From IMG/VR virus record IMGVR_UViG_3300045988_176357, positions 128,001 through 192,000 of that record: a DNA stretch of 64,000 nt. One strand, 5' to 3'. This document shows, one piece after another, positions 2,601-44,412 of the stretch. How positions within the stretch are numbered: the first letter of the stretch is position 1; every line of letters starts with the position of its first letter. A program made the position numbers and the translations under genes. The notes under the pieces are model-generated. The model was not told the DNA's origin, made no database searches, and saw only the letters and a program-made list of their open reading frames with translations. The DNA comes from a virus.

Positions 2601-2657
2601 TACCGTTTTGATCTTTACAGAACGGAGTTATAATACTCTCAGTAACTGGAGAACACT

Positions 2658-13467: not shown

Positions 13468-13818
13468 ATGAAAATAACAGACCTCGACACAAAAAATGTA
13501 CAGGTAACACGTACAGAAAAACGGTACATATTGAACGATAAGGTCTTCCAGCTTGACTGCTGCCCTGACTGGGCTCAGTATGCAGCTGTGGATGAGGATG
13601 GACATGCTTACTGGTACGAGTATAAACCGAACCAATATTCTGCCAGTTGGAGAAATACGGCACCTCGTTTAGTGTCGCACATACATACTGACACACTTTT
13701 CGATGCCACCGACTGGTGGAATAGCCTTATCAGGCGCCCACAGAAGGTACTTGAGGTTACTATGGCAGACCTGGAGAAGAAGTTTGGATGTAAAGTGAAA
13801 ATTGTAAAGGATATTTGA
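13468..13818 (+). CDS. CPDWAQYAAVD-motif family protein
   Basis: MKITDLDTKNVQVTRTEKRYILNDKVFQLDCCPDWAQYAAVDEDGHAYWY...LEVTMADLEKKFGCKVKIVKDI. AGGAG RBS. Confidence 0.55.
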   Translation: MKITDLDTKNVQVTRTEKRYILNDKVFQLDCCPDWAQYAAVDEDGHAYWYEYKPNQYSASWRNTAPRLVSHIHTDTLFDATDWWNSLIRRPQKVLEVTMADLEKKFGCKVKIVKDI

Positions 13819-20695: not shown

Positions 20696-21943
20696 ATGAA
20701 AACAGAAAAAGTGCTGAAGAAGAACGCAATCAAGGCCTATAAAGCCTTTAACAGTGACCTTACCTGCAAAGGCTTCCAATATGAAGTCGGGAAGGAATAC
20801 CACCATATAGGCGAGATTACAGTATGTTGGGCAGGCTTCCATGCTTGTGAAAGTTTGGCTGACTGCTTCCGCTTTTACCCGTTCAGTGAAACTAAAACCA
20901 GAGTGGCCGAGGTGCTCGCCTGGGGTAAAGTCAAGTACGAAGATACAGGTGTAAAACTCTGCGCCTCAAATATCAAGGTAGTCAGAGAACTCACATGGAG
21001 CGAGGTGTTGTCTCTGTGTAACAGCGGCGACAATAATACCGGCGACTGTAATAGCGGCAACCATAACACCGGTGACTGGAACAGTGGCAGCCGTAACAGT
21101 GGCAATTGGAATACAGGCAACTGGAACAGCGGCAACAATAACACCGGTGACTGGAATAGCGGCGACTATAACACCGGCAACTATAACAGCGGCTACTGGA
21201 ATTCCGGCAACAGTAACAGTGGCGAAGATAATAGCGGCAACAGTAACACCGGCAAGCGGAATAGCGGTGACAATAATAGCGGCAACAGTAACACCGGCAA
21301 CTATAATACAGGCAACGGTAACAGCGGCAACCAGAACACCGGCTGCGGTAACAGCGGCGACTGTAACAGCGGCGACTGTAACAGCGGCGACTGTAACAGC
21401 GGCAACCATAACAGAGGCTGCGGTAACAGCGGCGACTGGAATAGCGGCAACTGGAACATTGGCAACTGGAACATTGGCGACCGGAACAGCGGATACTTAA
21501 ATACTTCGGCACAGAAATATTGCTTTATCTTTAACAAACAAGTTGAAAAGTCAGTCTTGGCTCAGATTGAGTTTCCGGAGTTCATGTGCTTCACTTTGAT
21601 AGAGTGGATACCTGACTACAAAATGTCACAGCAGGAGAAAGAGCGGCACCCTGAATACGTCACAACAGGAGGATACCTAAAGGAGTACACATATAAGGAA
21701 GCCTTCAGGAAGTCCTTCGAGAAGGCCAGACGCAAATCTGACTGGCCCAAGCAGCGTCAGAAGCTGCTGGATCTGCCCAACTTCGATGCCAAGGTATTCG
21801 AGGAGATATCAGGCATCACATCTGAGGAACTTGGTGTCAGCGCTAAGGAGCTGGCAGACAAGCCAAAGACAGCCATGGAAGTCACAATGGCGGACATAGA
21901 GAAGGTATTCGGTTGTAAAATCAAGATTGTAAAGGATAGGTGA
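20696..21943 (+). CDS. N-S-G-N-x pentapeptide-repeat protein fused to a C-terminal CPDWA-family tail
   Basis: Conserved N-domain MKTEKVLKKNAIKAYKAFNSDLTCKGFQYEVGK, then about 45 NSGNx/NTGDx repeats, conserved C-domain EYVTTGGYLKEY..., and a final EVTMADIEKVFGCKIKIVKDR tail. Confidence 0.65.
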   Translation: MKTEKVLKKNAIKAYKAFNSDLTCKGFQYEVGKEYHHIGEITVCWAGFHACESLADCFRFYPFSETKTRVAEVLAWGKVKYEDTGVKLCASNIKVVRELTWSEVLSLCNSGDNNTGDCNSGNHNTGDWNSGSRNSGNWNTGNWNSGNNNTGDWNSGDYNTGNYNSGYWNSGNSNSGEDNSGNSNTGKRNSGDNNSGNSNTGNYNTGNGNSGNQNTGCGNSGDCNSGDCNSGDCNSGNHNRGCGNSGDWNSGNWNIGNWNIGDRNSGYLNTSAQKYCFIFNKQVEKSVLAQIEFPEFMCFTLIEWIPDYKMSQQEKERHPEYVTTGGYLKEYTYKEAFRKSFEKARRKSDWPKQRQKLLDLPNFDAKVFEEISGITSEELGVSAKELADKPKTAMEVTMADIEKVFGCKIKIVKDR

Positions 21944-21944
21944 T

Positions 21945-22343
21945 ATGTCCGTAAATTCTTTCTATCCACATACAGAAAGGGAGCAGCTAGCTCCTTTTGC
22001 AAACAAACGTGTGTTGGTAACTGGAAAAGTGCAGCATATTGCGGCTTGGATGTCGGGTAAAAGGTGGGGGTTGCGAGCTAACCTGGTTCAGTGCAAAGTA
22101 AAGCATGGTAATATTCAAGTAAGTGTCGACCATTTTACAGTCAATGTCGGGAAACAATTTATCGCTGTTCGAGCCAAAAGGAACACAACAGTATCTTTCT
22201 ATGCCACAGTCAAGGCATATCAGCCTGACAAACAACTGAAATATGTACCTGATGACGTCAAGATCGCTCTCGGTCTTACACCAAGAGTACCATCATATGG
22301 CATCAAGTGGCCTACAAGGGTCGAGGTGGTCAGTAGATGTTAG
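21945..22343 (+). CDS. Hypothetical protein
   Basis: ORF only. Confidence 0.35.
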   Translation: MSVNSFYPHTEREQLAPFANKRVLVTGKVQHIAAWMSGKRWGLRANLVQCKVKHGNIQVSVDHFTVNVGKQFIAVRAKRNTTVSFYATVKAYQPDKQLKYVPDDVKIALGLTPRVPSYGIKWPTRVEVVSRC

Positions 22344-22825
22344 TACGTGTAATTCCAAGGTACCTTATGGTACAGCTGTATAACAAGCATGTAGAAACTG
22401 GAGATACTGATGCCTTTCTTGACGGAAACCACTTTATTTCCGTTTACAGCACCAGAGACACGTCACCTTTGCCGGACCATCCACATGTACTTAAATTGAT
22501 GTGTGATGACCTGACACTTGCTGATATGCGTACATTTACAGAGGATGGCTGGAATCATGTTACACTGTTTGACGAGGACATGGCAGACAAGACCGCAGCT
22601 TTCATAAAGAGTATTCCCAGTACATGCAATTCACTTATAGTACACTGCGACGCAGGTGTCTCAAGATCTGGGGCCATAGGCATACTTGCCAACAGATATT
22701 TTAACGAAGAAGGCAGTGCTGACGATGAAAAGTTTCAACATGACTCAATGCCCTGGCTGTCGCCAAATCCGCACATATTGATGCTTCTCAGACCAAAGTT
22801 ACAGAGAAAGGAAAACAATGTCTAA
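22337..22825 (+). CDS. Dual-specificity/tyrosine protein phosphatase
   Basis: CX5R P-loop HCDAGVSRSG. Confidence 0.7.
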   Translation: MLVRVIPRYLMVQLYNKHVETGDTDAFLDGNHFISVYSTRDTSPLPDHPHVLKLMCDDLTLADMRTFTEDGWNHVTLFDEDMADKTAAFIKSIPSTCNSLIVHCDAGVSRSGAIGILANRYFNEEGSADDEKFQHDSMPWLSPNPHILMLLRPKLQRKENNV

Positions 22826-27476: not shown

Positions 27477-28813
27477 AAAAAGGACTCGGAAACCTGCTGG
27501 ATGCACTTAGCAAGGCAGATGGCGGCGTCAGTATGTCCATCACAGAATTCAAAGAAGCCCAGTATGGTATTCCACTTAAGCATTACTGTCTGCAGTATCT
27601 TTTCGGCAGCACTGGGCTCAGGTACGGCGGTTTCTATCTGCTTGCAGGTAAGCCGAAGTCGTGCAAGTCGCCGTTTGCTTTCTTTCTCGCACATCTCAGC
27701 TGTGAGAATGATGGCATTGCATATGTGTACGAACTTGAAGGCAAAGCGTCACCGACGTTGCTCAACAGCATGTTTGCAGACAAGCCCGAATGGCGAGAGG
27801 ATGGCGGCCCTTTCAAGCTCATCAGAGGATTGACCTTGGATGGTGCAGAGAAGCACCTTACAAAGTCCGTGCTTAAATTATTCAAGCAGTATGAAGTCTA
27901 CGACACTCCGCTGCTGATCGACTGGGACTCCATCTCAGGGGCTGCGATGTCAGATGTCGTGTCCAAGATCGAGAAGGAAGGTGTAGCCAGTAAAGGCTAC
28001 TACGAGAAAGCACACATCATGAAGCATCTGACAGAGAGCTGGGTGGCACTTACCAATAACCTGCCTGTCGTATTCGTCGGCGTCCTGCAGGAAAAAGAAA
28101 AGGCTGCAGAAGGATGGGCACCTGCAGGCGGACCGCAGAAGTCATATGGCGGCGGCGATTCGCAGCTGTTCAAGGCAGGTACATTGCTGTCATTCTCTCA
28201 CAGCACGCTGCAGAACGGCGCAGGCAAACTTGTGCGTATCAAAACTGCACTGAATGGGTTCGCAGACAGCAGAGGCATTGAAGTCAAGTTTGTCTGGGAC
28301 CAGTTCGGAGATCTTGAAACTGATTCACAGGGACATAAGTGGCTCTTCGCAGAGGCGACGGCAAAGTGTCTCGCACAGCCGAAGATCGTCGGCGAACTCA
28401 GAGACATCATTGATGTGAAGATCAACGACTCCGGCGACAGAGTGACATGCAAGACGTTCGGTCTTGACAAGGTTACAGCAACAGAGTTCGAGGAGGCCTT
28501 GTTCGCACCTGAGAACGCCAAGGTGCTGGAAGACCTCTACAGGTATCAGAAAATCGAGAAGATCAAGCTGCCCTCAGAGTACGCAGCTTACGCCGAGAAA
28601 GCAGGTGACAAAGAGGCTGCGTACAAAGAGGCGCAGAAACAGGCACAGCTCGAAGAGCGTGAGGCCAAGGCGGCTGAAGCTGCAGCAAAGGAAGCAGCCA
28701 AGCAGGCAAAACGAGAGGCGAAAGCCAAGAAGTCAGCTGCGGCATCCAACCCGTTAGCTGCCTTGGCAGATATGGCTAAGAAAGCGGAGGCATCCGATGC
28801 AAAAGCTGAATAA
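27473..28813 (+). CDS. UvsX/RecA-like recombinase with K/E/A-rich tail
   Basis: LLAGKPKSCKSPFAFFLA resembles T4 UvsX LAGPSKHFKSNFAL. RecA-fold spacing. Low-complexity C-terminus. Confidence 0.6.
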   Translation: MKKGLGNLLDALSKADGGVSMSITEFKEAQYGIPLKHYCLQYLFGSTGLRYGGFYLLAGKPKSCKSPFAFFLAHLSCENDGIAYVYELEGKASPTLLNSMFADKPEWREDGGPFKLIRGLTLDGAEKHLTKSVLKLFKQYEVYDTPLLIDWDSISGAAMSDVVSKIEKEGVASKGYYEKAHIMKHLTESWVALTNNLPVVFVGVLQEKEKAAEGWAPAGGPQKSYGGGDSQLFKAGTLLSFSHSTLQNGAGKLVRIKTALNGFADSRGIEVKFVWDQFGDLETDSQGHKWLFAEATAKCLAQPKIVGELRDIIDVKINDSGDRVTCKTFGLDKVTATEFEEALFAPENAKVLEDLYRYQKIEKIKLPSEYAAYAEKAGDKEAAYKEAQKQAQLEEREAKAAEAAAKEAAKQAKREAKAKKSAAASNPLAALADMAKKAEASDAKAE

Positions 28814-29138
28814 CAAGCGCGTGTTCTGTACACCTTACGACGATCAGCGTATCGTGACAGCAAAAATCAAGAACGAAAAGCACTATGTACTGAAAGCATG
28901 TCCGTTCTGCGGCCGCAAGCCTGTAATCGAGACAGTAGAACCGATATTCCATGCCGATAAAGTCCAGTACTTTGTATCATGTGCGCACCACGGCTGCGAC
29001 TGCTACACAAGAACCTATCGCAGTCCGGGTGAGGCAATCGCGAAATGGAACAGACGCATCAGTCCACTTGACCGTATTGTAGCTTCTGACTTGAAACGCA
29101 GTCTTAAAGCAGCACAGAAAGAGGCGACAAATGAGTGA
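28797..29138 (+). CDS. Small zinc-finger protein
   Basis: CPFCG...CAHHGCDC. Confidence 0.35.
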   Translation: MQKLNNKRVFCTPYDDQRIVTAKIKNEKHYVLKACPFCGRKPVIETVEPIFHADKVQYFVSCAHHGCDCYTRTYRSPGEAIAKWNRRISPLDRIVASDLKRSLKAAQKEATNE

Positions 29139-29832
29139 CACACCAGAGTGGCCCACGACAGCACAGGCTGTCAAGGAAATGATGACCGAAGTCTGCGACA
29201 AGAATTTGTTCGACTCCGGCGGAGCTTACGGCTACGCTTATGAACGCAGAGCCAATTGTGACAAGGAACCTGAATTCAAGGTACATTACGAGCTCCTTGA
29301 TACTGGGAAATTGTGTATCGAAGTCACAAAGAGCATGTACTGGCATCTTGTGAACACCTGCCAGTACAGACACGACCTCACTGTTATGCTGGACGCATAT
29401 GCAGATCTCAAAGACGAGCGCTACGGAGCATGGCTTGGCGAGGATTTCTTCACCTCGTTTGGTCTCAAGTCAGGATCCGACAATACATGCAACACTGAAA
29501 CGATGCTAGACGGTACGTTTCTGTTCACACAGGCGTACACCAGCGATGAATCGACAGACCTGTTCGTGATCAGCACACACAATGGCTGCGATGTGCGCTC
29601 TGGTTACAGCAGCGCCAAAGTCTTTGAGAGTCCGGACGCTGAAGTTCTGTATGGCTTGGACAGTGCAAGTCTTATGTGTCACGGTTGTGATAGACAGTTC
29701 TATCTGTCAGCCAGCGGCACTCTGACACTCGATCCTGACCAGTTCAGCCTCGAGCAGAACGACGACTTGCCGTACTTTGTTGACGGCAAGCTTTACTGTC
29801 CGAAGTGCCATGAGCCGCTGGAGGTGTACTGA
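29131..29832 (+). CDS. Hypothetical protein
   Basis: ORF, coupled. Confidence 0.4.
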   Translation: MSDTPEWPTTAQAVKEMMTEVCDKNLFDSGGAYGYAYERRANCDKEPEFKVHYELLDTGKLCIEVTKSMYWHLVNTCQYRHDLTVMLDAYADLKDERYGAWLGEDFFTSFGLKSGSDNTCNTETMLDGTFLFTQAYTSDESTDLFVISTHNGCDVRSGYSSAKVFESPDAEVLYGLDSASLMCHGCDRQFYLSASGTLTLDPDQFSLEQNDDLPYFVDGKLYCPKCHEPLEVY

Positions 29833-30308
29833 TGCCGAATGCACAACTCATGGCTGCGCTGCATGCGAGTACTAAAGCGTTGCGAGAAATGGCACGTGAC
29901 GACGCTACGTACGACTTCGTATACGCGCACAGGAACATGTTCGTCAGCAACAGAGAGTCCTTCAAGGCTGCTGTATCTGCATGCCAGGAGCGCTCAGGCA
30001 GAGAGCTGTTGGACAGATTGGATCTGCAGGAGATCTGCATCGAGAAAGTAACCGAAGCGGAGCTGCTGCACAGCTGCTACTACTTTGTCGACAGTCCACT
30101 GTACAAGCGTTTCATTCAGCTCGTCAGCAAGCACGGCGGCATAGGTACGGCAATCTTCGTCGTCAACAAGCGAGGCATCGTCGTTACCAATAAGTACAGT
30201 CTGGACGCCTATGTGCGGGTCAAGCATGTACTCGGCAGCACAGGTAAATTGCCAGACATCATGTGGGCGCCCATAGAAGACCTTAAAGGCTTCACGTTTT
30301 ACAACTAA
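29832..30308 (+). CDS. Hypothetical protein
   Basis: ORF, coupled. Confidence 0.4.
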   Translation: MPNAQLMAALHASTKALREMARDDATYDFVYAHRNMFVSNRESFKAAVSACQERSGRELLDRLDLQEICIEKVTEAELLHSCYYFVDSPLYKRFIQLVSKHGGIGTAIFVVNKRGIVVTNKYSLDAYVRVKHVLGSTGKLPDIMWAPIEDLKGFTFYN

Positions 30309-30317
30309 GGAGGTTGA

Positions 30318-31785
30318 ATGCTGGAAACAAAAGTCATGTTCAATGCTACAGAGATCACGATCAAAGTGTCTGTGTGGGCGCGGGGTGATCCGTTCCCTGC
30401 TATTGGACATGCTGTAGGTATAGACACAGAAACCGAACTGATTACAGACGCCGAGCTTACGCCTCCGTTGGTTGTACTCGGCGTTTTTAATCCTGCTGAC
30501 ATGACCTGCTACCAGATATCCTGGACCGACGCGCAGTACTTCATGCAGGAACTGCTTAAGCGTGACTGCAAGCTGTACTTCGCCAATGCAGGATTTGATT
30601 ACTTCGAGCTTGAAAGCGATGAACTTCGAGATGCGGTCAGCAATGACCGTCTCGTAGACTTGCTCATCAGGGCTCCGCTGAAAGAGATCGCTACGATAGG
30701 TTACATCAGAACGCACAGCCTGAAGGATGCCTGCCAGTGGCATCTCAATTACGAGATGGACAAGCACGAGGATGAAGGCGACCAGGCAGCTCGTGTCACG
30801 TTCCGAAGGAACAAGGACATTACAGATGAGCAGCGCATTTACCTGACAATCGACTGTGCGTCCACCTATTATGCATGCGAGGCGATCGGGCCTCAGGCGA
30901 CAGAGTGCACGCATACACGTGGGCAGATCGTCCTGTATCATATCAGCAAGAACGGCTTTCCGTATGATCCGTACATGTTTGATTACTGCGAGAAGCTGTT
31001 ACAGCAGCATATGGACCAGTACCGTGCAGAGCTCATCACGTACGGGTATCCTGATCCATACAAGAAGGACATGCCGACAGATATCAAGCAGCTGCAGGAC
31101 GGCTGGCCGATGTTCAGGGACGCCTGGTTCGCCGCTCATATCAAAGAGAAGTACCAGTTCGAGGACTCGCTGCCAGGCAAGAGCACTGTAAAGCGCATAT
31201 TGCTGTACGGCACTGCGTATATGCAGCACGGTACCGATAAAGGCACTCTGGCACGAGTGTTCGCAGCATTGCTGCTGCAGGACAAGAACCTGTCCAAGAA
31301 GGAACAGGCTGCATATGACCAATTGGTGGAGGAGCACGACTTTCTGGATGCCTGCAACGGTGTTGGCAAGAAGGAGGTTTGGCCGACGCTGCTGGTTGCG
31401 TGGATGCGTGCCGAGCTGGATGGCAAGGACATTGCTGGCATCTGGCAGGCAGTGGACGATGCGGTGCAGGACCACCCGCAGTGGTTCTGTACTGAGGAGC
31501 CTGTCAAGCCCAAGGCGTTCATGCAGGACCATCTGCGGGAACTGCAGGAAAAGTACCCTGGACTGGAGTTCGACAAGACGCTCAAGTCAGGTGAACTGAA
31601 GTGCTCCAAGAAGGACGCGTGGAAGTTGGCGGATGCGGGAGTGAACGATCCGCTGCTGACCGCGTACGTAAACTTTGGCCATGTGCAAAAGTATAAGTCG
31701 TCGTTTACCAATAGGGAATACCTGAGGAGCGACGGCAGAGTGCGGTGCCGCTTTGGCATCGTGGAGAGCGGTCGGTTTGGCCGCT
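30318..31785 (+). CDS. Family A (T7-like) DNA polymerase, exon 1 (3'-5' exo + N-terminal pol)
   Basis: Exo I GIDTETE, Exo II YFANAGFDYF, ...DGRVRCRFGIVESGRFGR (TGRLSS-like). The ORF then reads into the intron. Confidence 0.75.
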
Positions 31786-32129
31786 TCACACCGCGAGGTG
31801 TGTCGAACAAGAAAGTGAATTGCTGGGACACCTTAACGGGTAACGCCGAAGGCAATCAGCAGCCGAGCCATGCGTTCGACAGAACGCCAGCGCATGGAAG
31901 GTTCATCGACTATCCCGTACGTAATGGGAGTACCCGAGTAGCCATGTGCGTGATAACGCACGAAAGCAAGGGGAAGCACTCTGGCTCAGGAATGAGTCAA
32001 TGATATAGTCAGTGCGCTTATGGAAACATAAGGAGTGGTCAGGAGTGACAACCTGAAACCTGCTACTGGGCGGCAACCGGTAGTGAACAAGATCCTTGGT
32101 GTGTACAATATCAAGCCTGCGTACATCGG
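31786..32129 (+). ncRNA. Group I intron 1 in DNA polymerase gene
   Basis: Same family as IStrons C/D and the nrdD intron (tcacaccgcgaggtgtgtcgaacaagaaagtgaattgctgggacaccttaacggg...). Boundaries chosen so that GRFGRSSKPNLQQYP is restored. Confidence 0.6.
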
Positions 32130-32251
32130 CATCTAAGCCGAATCTCCAACAATATCCGTCACACGATCCGGTGTTTGCCTTGAAAAACATGTACAAGCCA
32201 CCGGATGGAACCATTTTTGTCAGCGTAGACTATAGCTTCGAAGCGGAGCCT
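32130..32251 (+). CDS. DNA polymerase exon 2 (PNLQQ-P ... FVSVDYS motif A)
   Basis: SKPNLQQYPSHDPVFALKNMYKPPDGTIFVSVDYSFEAEP. Confidence 0.6.
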
Positions 32252-33286
32252 TCACACCGCGAGGTGTGTCGAACAAGAAAGTGAATTGCTGGGAGTGCAT
32301 AATGCCTGCGAGGCTACAGCGTAACCGCAAGGTAAGCGCGACAGCTGCGAAAGCAGAAAGAACACGCAGGATGGCATAAGGTGACAGTAAGCCTAAGTGC
32401 TGTGACAATTGCTGATCAGCAGCCGATCAAGGGATCTCCTAAGGCGAAAGCTATGGAGCCCGGAAAGGGTTCAGAGACTAAGCGCTCCTTCTCTGGAAAC
32501 GGAGAAGATGATATAGTCCGATTGTATTTAAATATTATTGCTGTATAATTAGAATATATAAGGCATTAACCACACAGAATTAACATGGACACAAAACCCG
32601 TTGGTTTCATTTACAGAATATATTGTACGTTGTAGTACTGTAGCAAAAGCTATATAGGGCAGACACGACACAGCATATAGAAAAGGTTCGCTCAGCACTG
32701 TTGTCCTGGAGCGAAGCGAAAGACTTACATAGACAGAGCTATCGCATATCTAGGTAAATAGCATTTTTGTATCGAGTAGCTTGCAGAAGCACAAACGCTT
32801 CAGTAGTTAAATAAGCTGTAGATCTAGTATATAGAGAAGTACGGTAGTTTGTTTCCGGGTGGATTTAATATATCTAAAGGAGGTACAGTACCGTAGTTTA
32901 CTTACTCTGGTAAGCCTGTAGTGCATTACTAGACCGGTATTGTATATAGAAACAGTCAGTAGGCTGCATAGGCTACAGGTTGTAATGCTTCAGATATTCG
33001 TAGTATAGCCAACAAACGTATAAAGTCTACAAAAGGGAATCACTTTTATTGGTAGTTTACAGCTTTATAGGCTTATTTGGACTTTTGGAATACTCCGGAT
33101 AAGAATGGTCCGAAGCGTATTATCAATGTCAGTACTGGATAGGTGTTTTAGTCACAGATAGCTGTATGCAGAAAATACAACCTAACTAAGTCACAGGTAT
33201 CCAGAATGTGCCTAGGCAAAACAGCTAGTCTGAAGTCGTGTCCTTATGTATTTGAGTTTTACCAGCAATAAGCAGTTAGCGCAGAG
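32252..33286 (+). ncRNA. Group I intron 2 (canonical R/S core + ~750-nt AT-rich 3' extension)
   Basis: ggttcagagactaag and aagatgatatagtcc at 32471-32525. The first 50 nt are identical to intron 1. Ends ...gcgcagaG. Confidence 0.6.
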
Positions 33287-33517
33287 TTGGTCGCGCTGGC
33301 AGAATCGTGCATAACAAAGTACGGCGAGTCCGTATTAGGCACTATTATCAACGCGGATGTATGTCCGCATTACTTCTTCGCCGGTGTCATGATGGGTCTC
33401 ATAGACGCCGACGTCAGCTTTTGCAGGGATCCCCAGGAAGTGGATCGTGTCAAGAAGTTCCTTAAAGAGCACGTAAGCAAGGAAGAAAGACAGAGAGCAA
33501 AAGCAGTTAATTTCGGT
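33287..33517 (+). CDS. DNA polymerase exon 3 (motif B O-helix)
   Basis: LVALAES... RQRAKAVNFG. Confidence 0.6.
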
Positions 33518-34550
33518 TAAATAATGTAAAGGAATGTAAAATGTAGTATAGATGTTTGGAGTGTGGGTGTCTGTTCTAGGCTAAGCAACCGGCTAAATAC
33601 TGCTCGCAAGCACATAAACAAAGGAAACAGAACCACAAAAGATAGGTGTATATCTGTTTAAATTGCGGTTGTAAATTTTAGAGAGCAAAGCGTTCTGATT
33701 ATGTTTTTTGCGGGCATAAATGCCGGTGTGCATATAGATAGAGTCATCCTTAGTTCGACTAGAGATAGTTCGTAGTTAGTAGAATGCAAGCGGATAACAC
33801 ACTGAAGTTCAGTAATAGATAGGCAAAAGCTAAAGCTAATGACATATATTGTGGTAAAACCCGGTTACGGTGGTCATAGGAAGCTTTAGATGCTTAGCTG
33901 TAGAGACGTGGTATATCAGTAACAGATTTTGGTCATAGGTGCTACAATAAAACTTTAGCCCAATCGCCCTACGCATAGGTAATTGCGTCTAAATAGAAAA
34001 CTTTAGATAAGCGTAGACGTATATATGCAAAGAAGAAAGCACTCGGCCTTATTGTTACTGAAAAGTCTACTAACCAGAAGGTAAGATAGGCTATAATTAA
34101 ATAGAGATATGGAATATGCTAGTGCTGTGGTTACTGTCAAAATGTCGATGCTTTGCAGTTACATCATGCAGATATGGATAGAAGCCACAATAATAAAGCT
34201 AATCTAGTTCTCTTATGCGCTAATTGTCATCAGATACTGCATACACGTATAAAGCGCAATTGGCATATGTATACGTAGCCTAAAGTCACATGTATATTAC
34301 AATAGTTGCAAAGTATGTAGGCCGAAGTAAAAGAGCGGAATAAAGCGGGAACTGCCGACAGGCAAACCCGAACCGAAGGCACGCAGGAATGCGTGTCAGG
34401 GGCAACGCGTAGCAGTACGTCCAGCTCGGATATGAACTGCCAAGAGGCCGCTCCTCTGCAGCCTATGCTGCAAAAATGTACGCTGAACACCGGTGTATGG
34501 ACAGAAAGACCGGGAGCTATGGGATAAAAAGCCCGTAGGATAACAAATTG
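33518..34550 (+). ncRNA. Intron 3 (AT-rich, carries a degenerate HNH ORF)
   Basis: Lies between NFG and LPGGMKGKRLYQ (YGMS-like). Intron class not determined. Confidence 0.45.
34123..34275 (+). pseudogene. HNH homing-endonuclease remnant inside intron 3
   Basis: CCGYCQNVDALQLHHADMDRSHNNKANLVLLCANCHQILH. Stop codon immediately upstream, so no full-length ORF. Confidence 0.55.
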
Positions 34551-34961
34551 CTGCCAGGTGGCATGAAAGGCAAACGCCTATATCAGCACCTGAGAGAATG
34601 CGGCATCAAGGCTACGTTGCAGGAAGCCTTTCAGCTCAGGGAAACCTGGCTGCGAACCTTTAAGGAAATGAACCTGCACTTCGCCAGAACGCCGCTAAGA
34701 CAAGACCCAAGGGAAAGGTACGCCTGGATACCTGCAAGTGACGACGACACAAGTACAGAGGACGCTGACCCGAAGGCAGATAAGCGCAAGGGTCGTCAGC
34801 TGTATGAAGTCACAACAATTACAGGCTTCAGACGTAACCGTACCGTAATCAACAGCTGCCTGAACACAGAGTTTCAGAACCCAGTTGCACATCTTGCAAA
34901 GGAGGCTCTATGGAACTTCGAGAGGGCAGGACTCGGTAATCGTCTGCTGAATTTTGTCCAT
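34551..34961 (+). CDS. DNA polymerase exon 4
   Basis: ...NPVAHLAKEALWNFERAGLGNRLLNFVH ends on the His of motif C. Confidence 0.6.
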
Positions 34962-35246
34962 GGCATCGTGGACGTTAAAGAAAGTGAATTGCTGGGAGTG
35001 CATAATGCCCGACTGCCTGATACAGGAGCGAAAGCAGAAACAAGTGTCGGGATGCCTCAAGCTGAAACAAGTACCCGTGAGGGGCGCTAAAAGGTGGTGC
35101 AATTGCTAATCAGCAGCCGATCAAGGGATCTCCTAAGGCGAAAGCTATGGAGCCCGGAAAGGGTTCAGAGACTATCCCGCAAGGGAGTAGGGCGAAAGTC
35201 CGAAGCACTCCTTCTCTGGAAACGGAGAAGATGATATAGTCCGAAG
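34962..35246 (+). ncRNA. Group I intron 4
   Basis: Follows T, ends in G. Core gggttcagagactatcc...aagatgatatagtccgaag. Splicing restores VH|DE (motif C HDE). Confidence 0.7.
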
Positions 35247-35492
35247 GATGAAGCAGACTACTGGGCCTACCCAAAAGAGGTCAGGCAGCTAGCTCCGATA
35301 GTGGAGCGATTGTGGCTGGAGCCTGGTCGCCGTGTGTTCCCTCATGTCATGCTCAAGTGCGAGACATCACTGAGCCTGTACTGGGACAAAGGCGGCGTCG
35401 AATTTCCAGATGTCAAGTGGAACGATAACGGGGAGCCGATACTGGAACTCCCGCCGTTCGTTCAACAGGCGTATGCCGCAAAAAGTACATAA
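35247..35492 (+). CDS. DNA polymerase exon 5 (motif C DE + C-terminus)
   Basis: DEADYWAYPKEVRQLAPIVERLW... aligns with the Pol I HDELVLEAPKE... tail. Confidence 0.65.
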   Translation, partial: DEADYWAYPKEVRQLAPIVERLWLEPGRRVFPHVMLKCETSLSLYWDKGGVEFPDVKWNDNGEPILELPPFVQQAYAAKST

Positions 35493-35494
35493 AC

Positions 35495-35540
35495 ATGGTC
35501 CCCCTGTGAGGTAACTCTTGCAGGGGGCTTTTCTATTGAG
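35495..35540 (+). terminator. Rho-independent terminator
   Basis: ccccctgtgaggtaactcttgcagggggc + ttttct. Confidence 0.6.
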
Positions 35541-35549
35541 GAAACGAGC

Positions 35550-35798
35550 ATGAAAACAATTACAAAATGTACGTTGCTTGCAGCAGCTGCAGCTTGTACC
35601 ATGTTAACTGGCTGCGATAGCGAAGAGGATTTGCAGAGATATAAATGCGAGGAGATTACGCGTCTATGCGAAGACCTGAAGGTGATTGAGTACGACGGAT
35701 GTGAGTACTTGCTTTTTGGTCCGTACTCCTATGCTGGACTTCTAACACATAAAGGTAACTGCAAGTACTGTGAACAGCGAAGGAACAAAACGAAATGA
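35550..35798 (+). CDS. Small lipoprotein
   Basis: Signal peptide with lipobox LTGC. Confidence 0.5.
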   Translation: MKTITKCTLLAAAAACTMLTGCDSEEDLQRYKCEEITRLCEDLKVIEYDGCEYLLFGPYSYAGLLTHKGNCKYCEQRRNKTK

Positions 35799-36883
35799 GA
35801 ACAAAAAGAGTACTGAAGAAAAATGCAATCAAGGCCTATAAAGCCTTTAACAGTGACATGACTTGCAAAGGCTTCCAATATGAAGTCGGCAAGACCTACA
35901 GGCATAATGCTGTCTTGAAACTGTGCGAGGCAGGCTTCCATGCTTGCGAAAGGCTGGCTGACTGTTTCAGTTTTTACCCGTTCAGGGAAGCTGAAACCAG
36001 AGTGGCCGAGGTGCTAGTCTGGGGTAAAGTCGAGTATGCAGATACAGGTGTAAAACTCTGCGCCTCAAATATCAAGATAGTCAGAGAACTTGCATGGAGC
36101 GAGGTGTTATCTCTGTGTAACACTGGCTACGATAACAGCGGCCACAGTAACAGCGGCAACCATAATAGCGGCAGCTGGAACAGTGGCAGCTTTAATAGCA
36201 GCAACTGGAACAGCGGCGACTGGAACAGTGGCGGCTTTAATAGCGGCAGCTGTAATAGCGGCAGCTGTAATAGCGGCAACTGGAACAGTGGCAGCCGTAA
36301 CAGCGGCGACTATAATATAGGCAACTATAATATAGGCTACGGTAACAGCGGCAACCAGAACAGCGGCGACTATAATACAGGCGACTGTAACAGCGGCAAC
36401 AATAACACCGGTGACTGGAATAGCGGCGACTATAACACCGGCAACTATAATATAGGCAACTGGAATGCAGGTATATTCAATACAGGGGCTTGTGAATATG
36501 CTTTTGCGTTCAATCAGCTTGTCAAGAAACAAGACTTAGAATGTCTTCCAAGTATACCATTCCTACGTTTTAAGCTTGTCGAATGGATACCGGAAAAGCA
36601 TATGTTGCCGGAAGAGAAAGAGCAGCACCCTAAGTATGCGACAGCCGGAGGTTATCTCAAGAAGTACGACTACAAGGAAGCCTTCAGAAAGTCCTTCGAG
36701 GAGGCAAAGCGCCTTCCGGATTGGCCCGAACAGCTTAAGAGGCTGAAGGCGCTGCCCAACTTCAACTTCAAAATCTTTGAAGAGATATCGGGTATCACTG
36801 CCGAGGAGTTAACAGGCAGCACTGTCGAGAAGTTGACTACGAAACCGAAACGCAAACGGGAAAAGAGCACTAAGGGTGCTTAA
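35795..36883 (+). CDS. N-S-G-N-x pentapeptide-repeat family protein
   Basis: Conserved N/C domains and about 60 repeats. C-terminal basic tail. Confidence 0.65.
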   Translation: MRTKRVLKKNAIKAYKAFNSDMTCKGFQYEVGKTYRHNAVLKLCEAGFHACERLADCFSFYPFREAETRVAEVLVWGKVEYADTGVKLCASNIKIVRELAWSEVLSLCNTGYDNSGHSNSGNHNSGSWNSGSFNSSNWNSGDWNSGGFNSGSCNSGSCNSGNWNSGSRNSGDYNIGNYNIGYGNSGNQNSGDYNTGDCNSGNNNTGDWNSGDYNTGNYNIGNWNAGIFNTGACEYAFAFNQLVKKQDLECLPSIPFLRFKLVEWIPEKHMLPEEKEQHPKYATAGGYLKKYDYKEAFRKSFEEAKRLPDWPEQLKRLKALPNFNFKIFEEISGITAEELTGSTVEKLTTKPKRKREKSTKGA

Positions 36884-36900
36884 CTTAGAAGGATATTCAT

Positions 36901-37785
36901 ATGTATGTAAAACGTAAAGACGCAATCATAGCGTTCAAAGTGTTTTCTGATGCGGAACTGAATATGCATCATATTGTTCCAGGTACAATTCTTGACACTA
37001 AGTCCATGACCTCAGATGATAAAAGAATGTTCACTGTGTTCAAACATGCTGAGGATGCAATATCGTTGGCAGTGCATATGTGTATGCAGACTGTTTGCAG
37101 AGTGCGCGTATCAGGTAACGTACGAGAGCTGGAAGGTGGAAGGCTGTTAGTGCAGCATATGCAAGTAGACTGCGATGGACTGATACCGCTCAGAAAGCTG
37201 CTTGTTACAGTGAATAAAGGTTCTGCCAACTACGGTATATACAATGAAGGAACTCGGAATGATGGTAACCACAATGTTGGCTGCAATAATGTCGGTAACT
37301 GGAACTTCGGCTCATACAATCTGGGCTCCTTTAATTTTGGCACTGGTAATATCGGCAATCATAATAGTGGCGACTATAACTATGGTGACTTAAACGAAGC
37401 CGGATATTGCAATGTGGCTAAACGCACACGCTCGTGCGTCTTTACCACAGTAAATAACACCGGATATTTGAGCTTTAATAAGCCTTATACAGTTAATCTC
37501 TATACTTGTCAAATTCCTGATTTCTGCAGAGTAAAAGTCATTGAATGGATTCCTGTTTCCAGCCTGGCTACAGTTAAGGATACAAAAGAGAAATGCATGT
37601 ATGCATGCTGCGGAGGTCGATTGAAAATCACCAGTTATCGGGAAGCCTTCAGGATCTCTTTTGAGGTAGCCAGACGCAAACCGGATTGGCCCAAGCAGCG
37701 GCAAATGCTGCTGGATCTGCCCAACTTCGATGCCGAGGTATTCGAGGAGATATCAGGTATCACACCAAATGAACTTGGATTGTAA
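36901..37785 (+). CDS. Divergent pentapeptide-repeat family protein (short repeat tract)
   Basis: GNHNVGCNNVGNWNFGSYNLGSFNFGTGNIGNHNSGDYNYG. C-domain ...DWPKQRQMLLDLPNFDAEVFEEISGI. Confidence 0.55.
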   Translation: MYVKRKDAIIAFKVFSDAELNMHHIVPGTILDTKSMTSDDKRMFTVFKHAEDAISLAVHMCMQTVCRVRVSGNVRELEGGRLLVQHMQVDCDGLIPLRKLLVTVNKGSANYGIYNEGTRNDGNHNVGCNNVGNWNFGSYNLGSFNFGTGNIGNHNSGDYNYGDLNEAGYCNVAKRTRSCVFTTVNNTGYLSFNKPYTVNLYTCQIPDFCRVKVIEWIPVSSLATVKDTKEKCMYACCGGRLKITSYREAFRISFEVARRKPDWPKQRQMLLDLPNFDAEVFEEISGITPNELGL

Positions 37786-40867: not shown

Positions 40868-41483
40868 GATGTTGTTGCAGAAACTGAAGATCGCGCGCGA
40901 AAGCAGTTCGCGTGTTGTCTTCTGCTATAAGTATGTCTGGTCCCGAATCGACGACTATGTGTCACTGACCAATCTGAGACTGGAAGCAATACAGGTCCGC
41001 GACGGCAAGGTCTTCCATACACAGGCCGCTCCAGTGCTTGATGTGAACCATGGTAAGCCCAGAGTCGCATTCGCAGATTCCGGTATCGTGCAGGTCACCT
41101 CAGGACCCCGATCGAACATTGTCTTGAGAGAACGTCTGCTGCACGCCAACGAGACAGCAGCTCCGGTTCCCTTTTGTGGAACCAGGGAAATTACAGAAAG
41201 CAGCGATGAGAAGGATCTTCAGGTAGTCTATGACTTCCTGACATCCGCAGCCTTTCCTGGCGTGGATATGCGCATGCCGCAGTTGTTCCGGATCACGAAG
41301 AACCCTGAAAGGCTGCGCCTGAACATCACACCTGACTTGCTGCAGGCTCTTGATCTGGATCCCGGAACACCCAGTAAGGAGATACAGGATGCGTTCCTGA
41401 ACAAACTGCCTTCCATTTCAGCGCAGACATCCGAAGGATACGTGTTGCCGTTCAACGTGTGCCGCATGTGTTTCACATGCTGA
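40860..41483 (+). CDS. Hypothetical protein
   Basis: ATGcTTGA overlap with upstream stop. Confidence 0.4.
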   Translation: MLEMLLQKLKIARESSSRVVFCYKYVWSRIDDYVSLTNLRLEAIQVRDGKVFHTQAAPVLDVNHGKPRVAFADSGIVQVTSGPRSNIVLRERLLHANETAAPVPFCGTREITESSDEKDLQVVYDFLTSAAFPGVDMRMPQLFRITKNPERLRLNITPDLLQALDLDPGTPSKEIQDAFLNKLPSISAQTSEGYVLPFNVCRMCFTC

Positions 41484-41494
41484 CCAGCACACAA

Positions 41495-43065
41495 AGGACT
41501 CCTTGGCGCGTGAGCGCCATTGAACAAGAAAGTGAATTGCTGGAACACCTTAACGGGTCATGCCGAAGGCAATCAGCAGCCGAGCTTATGGATGCCCAGA
41601 CCGGGCGCCGTGAGAAGGTTCATCGACTATCCCGGAAGGGAGTACCCGAGCAGCCATGTGACCGGCAGGTCACGAAAGCAAGGGGAAGCACTCTGGCTCA
41701 GGAATGAGTCAATGATATAGTCAGTGCGCTTATGGAAACATAAGGAGTGGTCAGGAGTGACAACCTGAAACCTGCTACTGGGCGGCAACCGGTAGTGAAC
41801 AGAACCATGGTCTCAAAATAGCAACATTATTTTGACGTTTTGATTTTCATAAAGGTGATGTATATTATCTGTATACAATAAGGAGCGCCATGTACAGAGC
41901 CCATAAGATACGCATAGATTGCACAAAAGAGCAGCACAGTCTGTTAATGCAGACTGCAGGCTGCGCTCGTTATGCGTACAACTGGGGACTCGAGAAGTGG
42001 GGCAAGCAGTACGAAGCCTGGAAGGCTGATAGCAGCTTGGAGGAACCCAACTGGGTTAACATATCCAGACAGTGGACACAAGAGAAACCTGAATGGGCAA
42101 ACAAGACAGCACGCAGTGCTGTTACCTGCTCACTGCGTAATCTCGGCACCGCCTTCAAGAACTTCTCAAGGCGCAAAGCAAAGTACCCGAAGAGGCATAA
42201 GAGGTCTCAAGGAATCTCCTTCCAGCTTGGAAACGATACCTGCAGTATCGAAGGCAACCGCATCAGGCTGCCTATCATAGACTACGTAAAGCTCCGTGAG
42301 ACTCCACGATTCCAAGGCAAGATAACAGGCTACACAGTGCAGCTCATCGCTTCCCACTGGTACGTGACAGTCGCCTTCGACTGTCCAGACGTCCCCAAAG
42401 AAGCTCCAGAGTCCGTCGTCGGTATCGACGTAGGACTCCAGCACCCGGCTGTAGCCTCCGATGGAACAGTACTCCAGCTCCCTCTTGAGAAACTACAGAA
42501 GCTCGAAGCCAAACGGCGCAGAGCTCAGCGAGCCCTTTCAAGGAGCAAACGCAATTCCAATGCGCGAGAGCGCAAGCGTGATAGACTCCAACGTATACAG
42601 CAGAGGATCACCAACATCCGACAGGATGCAGTTCACAAGTTTACGACTGCAGTGTGCAAAAACCACGCCACTGTAGTCACCGAAGATCTGGACATAAACG
42701 AGCTCAAAGACAAGGCCCCCGCACGTTCAGTGCGCAGAGCCTACAACAGCTCCCTTATGGGACTCATTTTGTTCCAGATCTCGTACAAGGCGGTGCACCA
42801 CGTAAAGGCACCCAAGTTCTTCCCGAGCACCAAGAGATGCTCAACTTGTGGACACATTAAGGAGGCCATGCCTCCGCAAATCAGAACATACCATTGCGAC
42901 CACTGCGGAGCCCATCTCGACAGAGATGAGAACGCAGCTCGCAACTTGATGTTGCAACCGTGGGTCACACGGTAAGAGGCGCGGTGATGGTACAGGCAGC
43001 GTCAGCTGCAGGTACCAGATGATCCGCGAAGACAGTCCGGTGCAACGCCGGATGAGATCATGACA
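41495..43065 (+). mobile_element. IStron C: group I intron (41495-~41830) + tnpB family 2 + 3' tail ...gatgagatcatgaca
   Basis: 5' module shared with D. Ribozyme core shared with pol intron 1 and the nrdD intron. Begins 9 nt after a TGA stop. Confidence 0.7.
41890..42975 (+). CDS. tnpB: TnpB family 2 (361 aa), intact
   Basis: MYRAHKIRIDCTKEQH...; C-term CSTCGH...YHCDHCGAHLDRDENAARNL. Confidence 0.8.
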   Translation: MYRAHKIRIDCTKEQHSLLMQTAGCARYAYNWGLEKWGKQYEAWKADSSLEEPNWVNISRQWTQEKPEWANKTARSAVTCSLRNLGTAFKNFSRRKAKYPKRHKRSQGISFQLGNDTCSIEGNRIRLPIIDYVKLRETPRFQGKITGYTVQLIASHWYVTVAFDCPDVPKEAPESVVGIDVGLQHPAVASDGTVLQLPLEKLQKLEAKRRRAQRALSRSKRNSNARERKRDRLQRIQQRITNIRQDAVHKFTTAVCKNHATVVTEDLDINELKDKAPARSVRRAYNSSLMGLILFQISYKAVHHVKAPKFFPSTKRCSTCGHIKEAMPPQIRTYHCDHCGAHLDRDENAARNLMLQPWVTR

Positions 43066-43198: not shown

Positions 43199-43813
43199 AT
43201 GCTGCTGACAGAGTTGTTCGATACATGGGGAACCAAGCCTCTGCTGATGACGACTGCGACCAACGGCTTGACACCCGGCAAAGACAAGCTGCTTGGGGTC
43301 TGTGTCAAGGACCCTGAGTTCAGCTCAGGTGACAGGCTGCTGCTCAACTACACAACAGGCGTAGAACTTCAGCAGTCGTCGAAGTTTCATGGCATCAGTC
43401 AGCAGGACATGCAGAGCGCAGGCTTGCAGGAAGCCCAGTTCAAAGACGAGTTGGACAAGCTGCTATCAGAGAACAGCGTCGCGGTACTCACTTATAATGT
43501 ACCTTTCCAGAGCAGCTTCTTAGGCGAATGTCTTCCGGAACTGGAAAGCTTGCCCCTCTATGACCTGACGATCATCGAGAAGGCAATCAGAAACGCCTAT
43601 GCCTTCGACACTGAAGAGCTGGCGACGTTCAGCTCTTTCTACGCTGCCTGCTGCCACGCGGCTATGCCTGTACCTCTGGCTACACTGTGCAGGAATCTGA
43701 AGATGACTCGACAGCCTCCGCCAGGACAGCTTCCAATGGAACGGATGCTGGACGTTTTGCAAGCGCTTTACAACGTAGCTTGCCTTGAAGATATTTCTGT
43801 GCTTCCGAGTTGA
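43199..43813 (+). CDS. Hypothetical protein
   Basis: Preceded by a coupled 41-codon ORF (43079-43204) that lies directly after the IStron C 3' end. Confidence 0.4.
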   Translation: MLLTELFDTWGTKPLLMTTATNGLTPGKDKLLGVCVKDPEFSSGDRLLLNYTTGVELQQSSKFHGISQQDMQSAGLQEAQFKDELDKLLSENSVAVLTYNVPFQSSFLGECLPELESLPLYDLTIIEKAIRNAYAFDTEELATFSSFYAACCHAAMPVPLATLCRNLKMTRQPPPGQLPMERMLDVLQALYNVACLEDISVLPS

Positions 43814-44412
43814 AGCTGGGAGTGACGAATCCTGTACCCAAAGCAGTCATCTATATCTGCACCTGGGTACAGGGCTTAATGACAGGTGTGCAGGTCTAAT
43901 CGATTTGCAGCATGCTGTCCTGTTTGTCAAAATTAACCCACAGGAATGTCTATCCCACCGGACAATACAGAAGTACGAATCCCTAGCAGGCATCAAGCAA
44001 CAGTGATTTGTCCGTGGCCTGATCAGCCGGTTTGACAAATTTGGTTTGAACCTACACGATGCAGCCGGACTTGGAAACTGTGCAGTTAGTCTGTGGTGCA
44101 GGTGTCACATAGTTGACCGATAACTGTACCATAGTCTAAGAGACAGAGGATACCTGCTATTCGGGATACAGAGGGTATGAAGCTATCATCCCTTTAGTCG
44201 TTACTTCCTGCTTCTGTACGTGCGCAGCCTTATACTTGCTCAAGTCTATGCCGGATGAGACTGCGCCATCTTTAATTGAATACAATTTATGATACTACAT
44301 AGGAGCTCCTATTGTGTTGGATACATCTATCAGACCTCCGGATAAATGGAGGGCAGCAGCAATACCAAAGAAAGACGGATCGTTCAAAATATACTACATA
44401 TTAGGTATACGT
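43814..44412 (+). ncRNA. Candidate structured non-coding RNA region (~600 nt, no ORF) upstream of the IStron D / reverse transcriptase locus
   Basis: Perfect 10-bp inverted repeat cctgtaccca...tgggtacagg at 43829-43871. gcatgc and caaatttg palindromes. No ORF longer than 60 codons on either strand. Confidence 0.35.

Follow-up and report, generated by a model that had tools for sequence, protein, structure and literature searches.

How can a DNA polymerase gene that lies in five separate pieces still encode one enzyme, and what occupies the DNA between the pieces? The question is raised by a locus in the virus record IMGVR_UViG_3300045988_176357 of IMG/VR, of which we analysed positions 128,001 to 192,000; this stretch of 64,000 nucleotides (nt) is called the window here and supplies all coordinates given without another source. 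The bacterial code breaks 30318-35492 into five in-phase coding pieces on the plus strand, from an ATG at 30318, with AGGAGG ahead of it, to a TAA at 35490-35492. We conclude that the pieces are the predicted exons of one family A DNA polymerase gene (PolA) interrupted by four group I introns. Junctions were placed where the last exon base is a U that pairs with the G of a guide sequence, where the intron ends in G, and where joining restores both the frame and a conserved motif. The exons, each supported by alignment with homologues and by an intron-less allele (L138), are as follows.

Exon 1, 30318-31772, plus strand: 485 codons with the 3'-5' exonuclease motifs and the N-terminal part of the polymerase, ending VESG (also supported by its open reading frame (ORF); the homologue alignment is gap-free)
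Exon 2, 32120-32238, plus strand: RTSASKPNLQQYP ... VDYSF, in which motif A begins
Exon 3, 33280-33517, plus strand: AELVALAES ... RQRAKAVNFG, in which motif B begins
Exon 4, 34551-34961, plus strand: LPGGMKGKRLY ... LLNFVH, with the first half of motif C
Exon 5, 35247-35492, plus strand: DEADYW ... to the stop codon TAA

Joined at these junctions, the exons form an in-frame coding sequence of 2469 nt for 822 amino acids. The Pfam model DNA_pol_A (PF00476) matches the spliced protein with E = 1.5e-19 and 70.6 bits (cut-off, 34.3), and the family A motifs are invariant in an alignment with six homologues. A search of 5.8 billion proteins returned uninterrupted homologues of 823-867 amino acids that are 37-65% identical, and the seven-sequence alignment, which includes homologues of 832, 823 and 832 amino acids, runs unbroken across all four junctions (ESG/RTSASKPNLQQYP, VDYSF/AELVAL, AKAVNFG/LPGGM and LLNFVH/DEADYW), at which splicing would restore SGR-TSASKPNLQQYP, DYSF-AELV, AKAVNFG-LPGG and VH-DE. 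Since this alignment is gap-free and the DNA of allele L138 is contiguous across all four intron sites, the exon structure is confirmed as far as sequence allows. A preliminary description of this DNA had already recognized a family A polymerase in five exons with its motifs, including a VH/DE motif restored by splicing, and had placed four introns of at least two classes at essentially the same sites. Pfam and the alignment agree with the first of these claims, the gap-free alignment and L138 with the second, and the division described below, between the IA2/IStron type (introns 1, 2 and 4) and another lineage (intron 3), with the third. The gene appears to sit in the replication module of a virulent-type phage, its introns at codons for the most conserved polymerase motifs; a megablast search with 28000-37000 found no match among 50,697 phage records.

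The four predicted introns, with the evidence for each, are the following.

Intron 1, 31773-32119, plus strand: 347 nt, ORF-less, IA2/IStron type with P7.1/P7.2, ending at G32119 (Rfam, identity to a copy at 44420, covariation in P2, P6, P8 and P9)
Intron 2, 32239-33279, plus strand: 1041 nt, IA2 type, core at 32239 to about 32530, an endonuclease gene in the P9 loop, terminal G33279 (Rfam, identity to a core in the related contig L002)
Intron 3, 33518-34550, plus strand: 1033 nt, compact group I intron without P2, a hairpin between P7 and P3', an HNH gene in the P1 loop (covariation, ORF-less copies)
Intron 4, 34962-35246, plus strand: 285 nt, ORF-less, IA2 type, a core like that of intron 2 with a P7.1/P7.2 insert, ending at G35246 (Rfam, a 66-nt run shared with intron 2)

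Introns 1, 2 and 4 matched the Rfam group I model RF00028 with 40.9 bits (E = 3.2e-8), 37.0 bits (E = 4.7e-7) and 26.3 bits (E = 7.4e-4), respectively, over the whole length of the model, in a 3.8-kilobase (kb) search in E-value mode. All three have the core helices with covariation, a U.G pair in P1 and a terminal G. They are preceded by U31772, U32238 and U34961 and end with G32119, G33279 and G35246; P1 is AGCGGU/GCCGCU in intron 1, with the terminal U.G at U31772, lies in the GCUU/GGAGC region of intron 2, again with a terminal U.G, and is GUCCAU/GUGGAC in intron 4, with the U.G at U34961. Across 11 copies (alignment A2), 94.2% of the cells in helices P2, P4, P6, P7, P8 and P9 are paired and 21 of 35 pairs have changed on both sides, compared with 29-48% pairing and no more than seven both-side changes when the registers were slid by 1-3 columns; P4 and P7 are invariant. 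Introns 2 and 4 contain the same core, GGTTCAGAGACTA...GATGATATAGTCC, as had been noted before, and share with an extra intron of L002 (an IMG/VR contig of 95 kb, about 94% identical to the window) a core variant with a P5 extension of about 130 nt. The core of intron 2 is identical at 264 of 292 positions to an ORF-less intron of L002 whose P9 is a plain hairpin; in intron 2 the P9 loop is closed by GAUUG (32520-32524) and CAGUU (33273-33277). Intron 4 ends four bases after P7'. P7.1/P7.2 are present in introns 1 and 4 of the window (GACUAUCCCG...GGGAGUA...) and absent from intron 2 and from introns I4 and I3a of L002.

L002 carries a fifth polymerase intron at 13193-13493, an ORF-less copy of the intron 2 core inserted after GCAGTT, as well as a micro-exon of 9 nt (AATTTCGGT) between two group I introns, six of whose nine bases belong to P1 of the downstream intron. 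In L004, L005, L136, L137 and L134, introns lie at or within one codon of this upstream, fifth-intron site of L002, and in L136 ARAGORN predicts a tRNA-Leu(UAA) at 2614-2689, inside the 3' part of a polymerase group I intron.

What, then, is intron 3? Its P1 is formed by UUCGGU (33512-33517) and GCCGAA (34321-34326), the same in all five copies, and its P10 by GUAG (34317-34320) with the exon sequence CUGC; the ribozyme core spans 34317-34550 and ends with G34550. P10 tracks the 3' exon, being CUGC/GUAG in the window, CUUCC/GGAAG in L003 and UUUC/GAAG in L134. L002 has the same 3' 235 nt in an ORF-less form, in which UUCGGU, a loop of 6 nt and GCCGAA make a small hairpin, so that the 800 nt between 33518 and 34320 are to be read as an insertion into the P1 loop; P1 is likewise a small hairpin in L135, another ORF-less homologue. 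Homologues of intron 3 occupy the identical codon boundary, NFG/L, in polymerases that are only 35-57% identical, namely in L003, with an HNH ORF in the P1 loop (L1), in L134, and in L135, which has no ORF. We wrote the structure as P3, P4, P5, P6, P7 (which makes a pseudoknot with P3), the hairpin that separates P7 from P3', P9 and P9.1. In the five sequences 97.8% of its cells are paired and 24 of 47 pairs have changed on both sides, including pairs of the P3/P7 pseudoknot; none of 500 shuffles scored as high, and slid registers gave at most four such pairs. P8 forms in each of the five sequences and is too variable in length to be aligned. With the U.G in P1, P10, a P3-P8 core, the pseudoknot and the G that ends all five copies, the features of a group I intron are in place. 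A covariance model built from this alignment (R1) scores 288 bits and finds its five source copies and nothing else in the 290 kb of sequence examined. We conclude that intron 3 has a predicted group I architecture with an IA-like extra hairpin and without P2, and that it represents a lineage tied to the NFG/L site of this polymerase family. Two of the checks that the preliminary description had proposed for the introns could be made: the Rfam search was borne out for introns 1, 2 and 4, at scores below the gathering score of 50, and failed for intron 3, and structure modelling supported the IA2-type helices and the intron 3 structure alike through covariation.

The polymerase could instead be left unspliced at one or more sites, most plausibly at intron 3, and work as a split, multi-subunit enzyme. 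Split phage polymerases exist (T4-like gp43A/B); at this locus an in-frame TAA closes exon 3, a TTG at 34548 could serve as a start for exon 4, and intron 3 goes unrecognized by Rfam. The complete and covarying group I architecture, with its 5' U.G, covarying P10 and terminal G, argues against this arrangement, as does the retention of intron 3 at the exact same site, with or without an ORF, in lineages with 35-57% polymerase identity. The break would moreover fall inside motif B (NFG/LPGG), and neither exon 2, with 39 codons, nor the 9-nt micro-exon of L002 can be an independent subunit. We therefore consider a split enzyme very unlikely.

Two of the introns are much longer than their ribozymes. 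The preliminary description had given intron 2 a 750-nt AT-rich tail and intron 3 an HNH remnant; both regions instead hold intact genes if TAG is read as a sense codon.

GIY-YIG homing endonuclease gene, 32585-33271, plus strand: 228 codons plus TAA, with 15 in-frame TAG codons, in the P9 loop (L9) of intron 2 (ORF with TAG as sense, PHROG 314)
HNH homing endonuclease gene, 33541-34278, plus strand: at least 245 codons up to the TAG at 34276, with 18 TAG codons in all, in the P1 loop (L1) of intron 3 (ORF with TAG as sense, PHROG)

The 15 and 18 in-frame TAG codons are the reason why both genes had been missed. TAG makes up 6.6-7.3% of their codons, and neither frame contains a TAA or TGA, over 228 codons in the GIY-YIG gene, whose TAA lies 8 nt before the 3' splice site, and over 245 codons in the HNH gene. 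When the TAG positions were filled with X, residues 4-211 of the GIY-YIG protein matched PHROG 314 ('homing endonuclease'; E = 1e-12), and the Pfam GIY-YIG model scored 21.1 bits, just under its cut-off of 22.6. A full HMMER search gave 4541 homologues, and Y10, Y23, R34, H38 and N95, the residues expected of the family, are invariant in an alignment of 62 sequences; a PDB sequence search returned chance matches only. The HNH protein matches PHROG 1271 and ten other HNH families (best E = 2e-11, residues 2-241) and displays the motif HH...N...CANCH...H (LHHADMDRSHNNKANLVLLCANCHQILH), whereas Pfam gave no match at E ≤ 0.01. If the TAG at 34276 is itself read as sense, the frame runs on to a TAA at 34525-34527 and adds a tail of 83 residues encoded by the ribozyme core (AEVKERNKAGTAD...); the HNH ORF of L003 stands in the same frame relationship to its ribozyme core.

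These frames could also be decaying pseudogenes or non-coding AT-rich filler in which TAG is an ordinary stop. In the standard bacterial code (code 11) neither region shows an ORF of more than 50 codons, and GC content is low in both (0.38-0.39). Decay, however, would hardly have left frames of 228 and 245 codons with 15 and 18 TAG and not one TAA or TGA, or profile matches that cross the TAG codons over the full length. The TAG-rich GIY-YIG ORF is, in addition, conserved in L002, and in L139 a 52%-identical homologue with 19 TAG codons, seven at shared positions, sits at the same polymerase site; the genome also supplies a tRNA(CUA), and TAG is in use all through its late genes. Pseudogenes or filler are thus scarcely credible, and we read both frames as predicted endonuclease genes written with TAG as sense.

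Where else does this phage use TAG? Within the window, TAG never occurs inside the approximately 70 plus-strand genes and serves as the stop of no more than one; these genes make up a replication module with SbcCD-like proteins, helicases, a primase/helicase, a UvsX-like protein and PolA. The sole candidate for a TAG stop is a gene at 21933-22352, whose stop may be the TAG at codon 136 of 140, with a TAA four codons further on. Further upstream, in the related contig IMGVR_UViG_3300045988_177579, plus-strand genes over about 30 kb (approximately 2,000-33,000; L013/L012/L010/L009) have TAG at 3-7% of codons, among them genes for a Baseplate_J protein and for an 836-amino-acid tape-measure-like protein with 40 TAG. 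PHROG and Pfam searches with 17 of these TAG-rich late proteins yielded one match to Baseplate_J, weak helix-turn-helix matches and almost nothing else. The same contig carries a tRNA(CUA) (L013 1897-1970, minus strand, 61 bits to the Rfam tRNA model) that adjoins a tRNA-Met. With both a tRNA for TAG and TAG-rich late genes, the relative has the features of a stop-codon-recoded phage, and we conclude from the gene content that late genes of this lineage are translated with TAG as a sense codon.

This division into early and late genes, as known from recoded phages, suggests a timing for the endonucleases. Early in infection, the polymerase mRNA would be spliced and translated, and ribosomes entering the intron ORFs would stop at the first TAG, decoding of which would require the phage's own tRNA(CUA). 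As this suppressor tRNA accumulates late in infection, the GIY-YIG and HNH enzymes would be made, at a time when replicated genomes are available for homing. They would then cleave or nick the intron-less polymerase alleles of co-infecting relatives; the predicted intron-less target site relevant to the GIY-YIG enzyme reads ...GACTATAGCTTCGCAGAGTTG.... We infer that both endonucleases are made only late. Borges et al. (10.1101/2021.08.26.457843) proposed delayed production for an endonuclease of Agate phages whose gene is rich in TGA and lies in an intron of an early gene.

Which amino acid does TAG encode? Three comparisons point to glutamate. First, at the 15 TAG columns of the GIY-YIG protein, 59 homologues from outside the close family have Glu at 35% of positions, a 5.1-fold excess over a background of 6.9%, and Gln at 6%; TAG codon 79 falls in the column of the invariant catalytic Glu (E in 58 of 59). 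Second, when six late proteins were compared with TAG-free syntenic homologues in L011 (25-36% identity), E stood opposite TAG in 23 of 75 cases and Q in 2 of 75, whereas genuine Glu codons met E in 28% and genuine Gln codons met Q in 24%; the log-likelihoods are -199 for E, -206 for D and -220 for Q. Third, Glu codons appear to have been replaced: GAA and GAG together account for 6-7% of codons in TAG-free genes and about 1-2% in TAG-rich genes, in which TAG reaches 4-7%, whereas CAA and CAG remain unchanged at 4-5%. In agreement with these figures, the match of the GIY-YIG protein to PHROG 314 reaches 68.2 bits when TAG is translated as E, compared with 52.7 for K, 51.6 for Q, 51.0 for L and 49.8 for S, and in the alignment with the L139 homologue TAG stands opposite GAR codons four times and opposite CAR codons never.

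Annotation pipelines assume the standard phage code 15, in which TAG in both the intron ORFs and the late genes would be read as Gln. The TAG-recoded phages described so far have all been assigned TAG = Gln, with proteomics for two crAss-like phages (PMC9523058), and our literature search found TAG = Gln only and no report of TAG = Glu in a phage; a study of Lak phages (PMC8346664) noted occasional alignment of TAG with E and concluded Q. A database caller has also translated the same GIY-YIG endonuclease with Q (P0045). This is not independent evidence for Gln: a word-indexed search with the GIY-YIG protein recovered only its own cluster, already translated in that way. For the HNH gene, E and Q score equally, and a tblastn search of the 50,697 phage records with its protein gave no match, so that homology offered no decoding of TAG there. 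Code 15 would, however, turn the invariant catalytic Glu of the GIY-YIG fold into Gln, cost that gene 16.6 bits relative to E, and give TAG-rich proteins 10-14% Gln and 1-2% Glu. It would leave Q opposite only 2 of 75 TAG codons, far from the 24% seen for genuine Gln codons, and it fits poorly with a codon usage depleted in GAR but not in CAR codons.

The tRNA(CUA) speaks on both sides. Its anticodon arm equals that of tRNA-Gln(CUG) of Chloroflexota except at base 36, and its D and anticodon arms resemble both this tRNA and tRNA-Trp(CCA) of Bacillota and Candidate Phyla Radiation bacteria. A pattern scan of bacterial genomes for its kin returned 114 tRNA-Trp among 120 hits and a few tRNA-Gln(CUG), a result biased by a pattern taken from the D and anticodon arms. 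The tRNA has G1-C72 and G73, and not the U1-A72 that is typical of tRNA-Gln. A hypothesis for its charging can be based on the indirect Gln-tRNA pathway: in a host without glutaminyl-tRNA synthetase (GlnRS), a non-discriminating glutamyl-tRNA synthetase (GluRS) would attach Glu to a Gln/Trp-like tRNA(CUA), which, lacking U1-A72, would escape amidation by GatCAB, so that Glu would be inserted. On balance we hold a TAG = Glu code, operating through the G1-C72 tRNA(CUA) in the late genes and intron endonuclease genes of this lineage, to be probable, and Gln to be unlikely.

How did so many related introns come to lie in one gene? The window contains further members of the family. A core motif, GAAAGTGAATTGCTGGGA, occurs nine times (0.05 expected), and Rfam finds additional intron copies near 2168, 41442, 44385, 51983 and 63742. 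Five units of the window consist of an IA2 ribozyme followed by a TnpB of about 380 amino acids; these proteins are paralogous and share the motif FFPSSKTCSxCGH...YHCDHCG...DRDxNAA.

IStron-like unit, 2160-3791: TnpB at 2646-3791
IStron-like unit, 10725-12340: TnpB at 11207-12340
IStron-like unit, 41480-42975: TnpB at 41836-42975
IStron-like unit, 44400-45893: TnpB at 44754-45893
IStron-like unit, 51985-53651: TnpB at 52473-53651

Alignment A2 shows intron 1 to be collinear with the IStron ribozymes as far as the end of P9 and to lack the TnpB part. Introns 1, 2 and 4 carry no TnpB and are therefore not IStrons in the sense of ribozymes carrying a transposon ORF, but homologous to their ribozymes. 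The IStron-type core that had been seen in intron 1 is real: 297 of its 347 positions match the unit at 44400, with exact runs of 129-131 nt. The units lie within the replication module and apparently interrupt genes such as SbcD/SbcC. Two near-identical TnpB copies (2646-3791 and 52473-53651) each have one in-frame TAG at codon 97, where three TAG-free paralogues have F, S or I; these two copies either need a suppressor tRNA or are inactivated. A TAG-rich frame of 288 codons on the minus strand (43629-44492) was rejected as the antisense of an IStron ribozyme. Another IA2-type intron, at 63742-63985 and with 46.7 bits in Rfam, is located where an ORF (62684-63754) ends; the window stops before the 3' end of this intron.

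Introns 1 and 2 have a 5' segment in common, which had been described as a shared start of 50 nt.

Shared 5' module, intron 1 copy, 31784-31828, plus strand: P2 hairpin CACACC-GCGA-GGTGTG, J2/3 and the start of the P3/P4 core, an exact run of 45 nt
Shared 5' module, intron 2 copy, 32250-32294, plus strand: an exact run of 45 nt with 31784-31828

The segment exists, with 45 nt as the longest exact run between the two introns; in each of them the run starts at position 12, immediately behind the 3' strand of P1. The part specific to the module is smaller, about 25 nt: the last 20 of the 45 nt (AAGAAAGTGAATTGCTGGGA) are universal core, found in every IA2-type copy, and the preceding 25 or so (P2 CACACC-GCGA-GGUGUG and J2/3) are shared by introns 1 and 2 only with the intron at 63755. 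Beyond the module the cores of introns 1 and 2 differ (167 matches over 236-291 nt). The 3' half of intron 1 is identical to the IStrons at 41500 and 44420 over stretches of 129-131 nt, and intron 2 has exact runs of 66-112 nt with intron 4 (66 nt) and with the extra intron of L002, whose P1/P2 segments differ. Common descent under strong structural constraint would account for the 20 nt of universal core, and in every copy P2 keeps the form of a short, conserved hairpin capped by a GNRA-type loop. Identity in P2 is not forced by structure, though, because the stem varies freely elsewhere in the family (six of six pairs changed on both sides), and it is base for base the same in introns 1 and 2 and at 63755 even as the downstream cores diverge. 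Descent without exchange also leaves unexplained the 129-131-nt identity of the 3' half of intron 1 to other copies, the joining of the intron 2 core to three different P1/P2 segments (in intron 2, intron 4 and I3a of L002), and the clean P7.1/P7.2 indel between intron 4 and its L002 orthologue: the insert, about 28 nt at 35175-35202, is precisely missing from an otherwise approximately 98%-identical intron (at about 14354). We consider such descent doubtful, though the least improbable of the alternatives weighed here. The mosaic of long identical segments is most readily understood as the outcome of recombination or gene conversion among paralogous introns of a single genome; the recombination between introns suggested earlier is thus a reasonable reading of the exact runs, short of proof.

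Taken as a whole, an account that combines a split PolA gene, group I introns, TAG-sense endonuclease genes with late timing, TAG = Glu and mosaic introns is in our judgement highly probable. Several observations weigh against it. Splicing of the four introns is predicted from sequence; none of introns 1, 2 and 4 reaches the RF00028 gathering threshold of 50, and Rfam run at gathering thresholds over the whole window returned nothing. Intron 2 lacks P7.1/P7.2 and intron 4 lacks P9, and intron 3 had no RF00028 match at E ≤ 10, either in its window copy or in the ORF-less copy of L135. The HNH ORF meets no TAA or TGA before the ribozyme core, and its gene, tried with E, Q, K, S or L at TAG, does not discriminate between them (E, 51.4 bits; Q, 51.7 bits). 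A tRNA search of the window found none, and the window contains no late genes; the late module and the tRNA(CUA) were seen in the approximately 94%-identical relative contig. The body of that tRNA resembles tRNA-Trp and tRNA-Gln and not tRNA-Glu, which leaves Glu charging unexplained by sequence alone.

Two features lie downstream of the polymerase gene. In the window, the ORF that follows it (35795-36883) encodes long runs of N-S-G-(N/D/S)-(W/Y/C)-N repeats; repeats of the N-S-G type (35795-36883 and 59866-60078) give spurious sub-threshold Rfam matches to 'isrG' on the minus strand. In more distant relatives, a gene for a reverse transcriptase (Pfam RVT_1; L003 17736-18662 and L004 16942-17877) lies a few kb past the polymerase gene, possibly as part of a diversity-generating retroelement.

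The multi-intron polymerase gene is an extreme but recognizable case of the colonization of phage core genes by introns, and IStron-type ribozymes without TnpB, an intron lineage invisible to Rfam and endonucleases written with TAG are variants of known themes. The value of the gene is that it places two ribozyme lineages side by side: the intron 3 lineage, unseen by Rfam, has enough covariation to seed a model, and the IStron-type ribozymes display a clear mosaic structure. The TAG-written endonuclease genes would represent a second, independent case of selfish intron genes tied to the late translational state of a phage. If confirmed, TAG = Glu would be a new phage code; pipelines using table 15 would then mistranslate 3-7% of the residues in late proteins of this lineage, catalytic ones included, and it would become possible to test directly how a Glu-inserting amber suppressor arose.

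How does the locus compare with known systems? Group I introns are found in the polymerase genes of SPO1, Bastille and other Bastillevirinae, T7-like phages and cyanophage Pf-WMP3 (PMC11878797, PMC3428280); Herelleviridae polymerase genes have one to three, and nearly half of Bastillevirinae polymerase genes are split (PMC11878797). The introns described here resemble these in being of the self-splicing IA2 type (here predicted), in lying in conserved motifs at close insertion sites and in the frequent presence of HNH endonucleases. They differ in number, with four introns (five, with a 9-nt micro-exon, in L002) compared with two or three in some known genes, in combining two unrelated ribozyme lineages in one gene, and in having endonuclease genes written with TAG as sense. 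IStrons are group I IA2 ribozymes fused to IS200/IS605 or IS607 elements with TnpB, and ORF-less derivatives are known (Tourasse 2014, PMC4227781). From end to end, intron 1 shows homology to the ribozyme of the five ribozyme-TnpB units of the window, whereas introns 1, 2 and 4 lack TnpB and TnpA, with a GIY-YIG gene in their stead in intron 2; IStrons are known from the chromosomes of Bacillota and Fusobacteria, whereas these copies occupy a phage replication module. Agate phages offer a parallel for the endonuclease genes, with a homing endonuclease that is enriched in the recoded stop codon and located in a group I intron of an early gene (10.1101/2021.08.26.457843); there TGA is read as Trp, whereas here TAG is apparently read as Glu, and two endonucleases of different families, their genes very dense in TAG, share one gene.

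In crAss-like phages of the Delta and Zeta groups, group I introns divide core genes into four or five fragments, with up to 14 introns per genome (Yutin 2021, PMC7886860). Split core genes, late genes with TAG or TGA as sense and suppressor tRNAs are common to those phages and the present lineage. In those phages, however, TAG has been assigned to Gln, whereas here the introns were identified by ribozyme structure and TAG is probably Glu. Membership in the Zeta group was considered and set aside on GC content, which is about 48-50% in the window compared with 30-38% in that group; positions 28000-37000 of the window also had no nucleotide match in the phage collection. Decoding of UAG as glutamate has precedents in NCBI tables 30 and 31, used by peritrich ciliates and Blastocrithidia. 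These are eukaryotic nuclear codes that also reassign UAA, whereas in the present lineage the change would concern TAG only, in a subset of phage genes, and would depend on a tRNA(CUA) of the phage.

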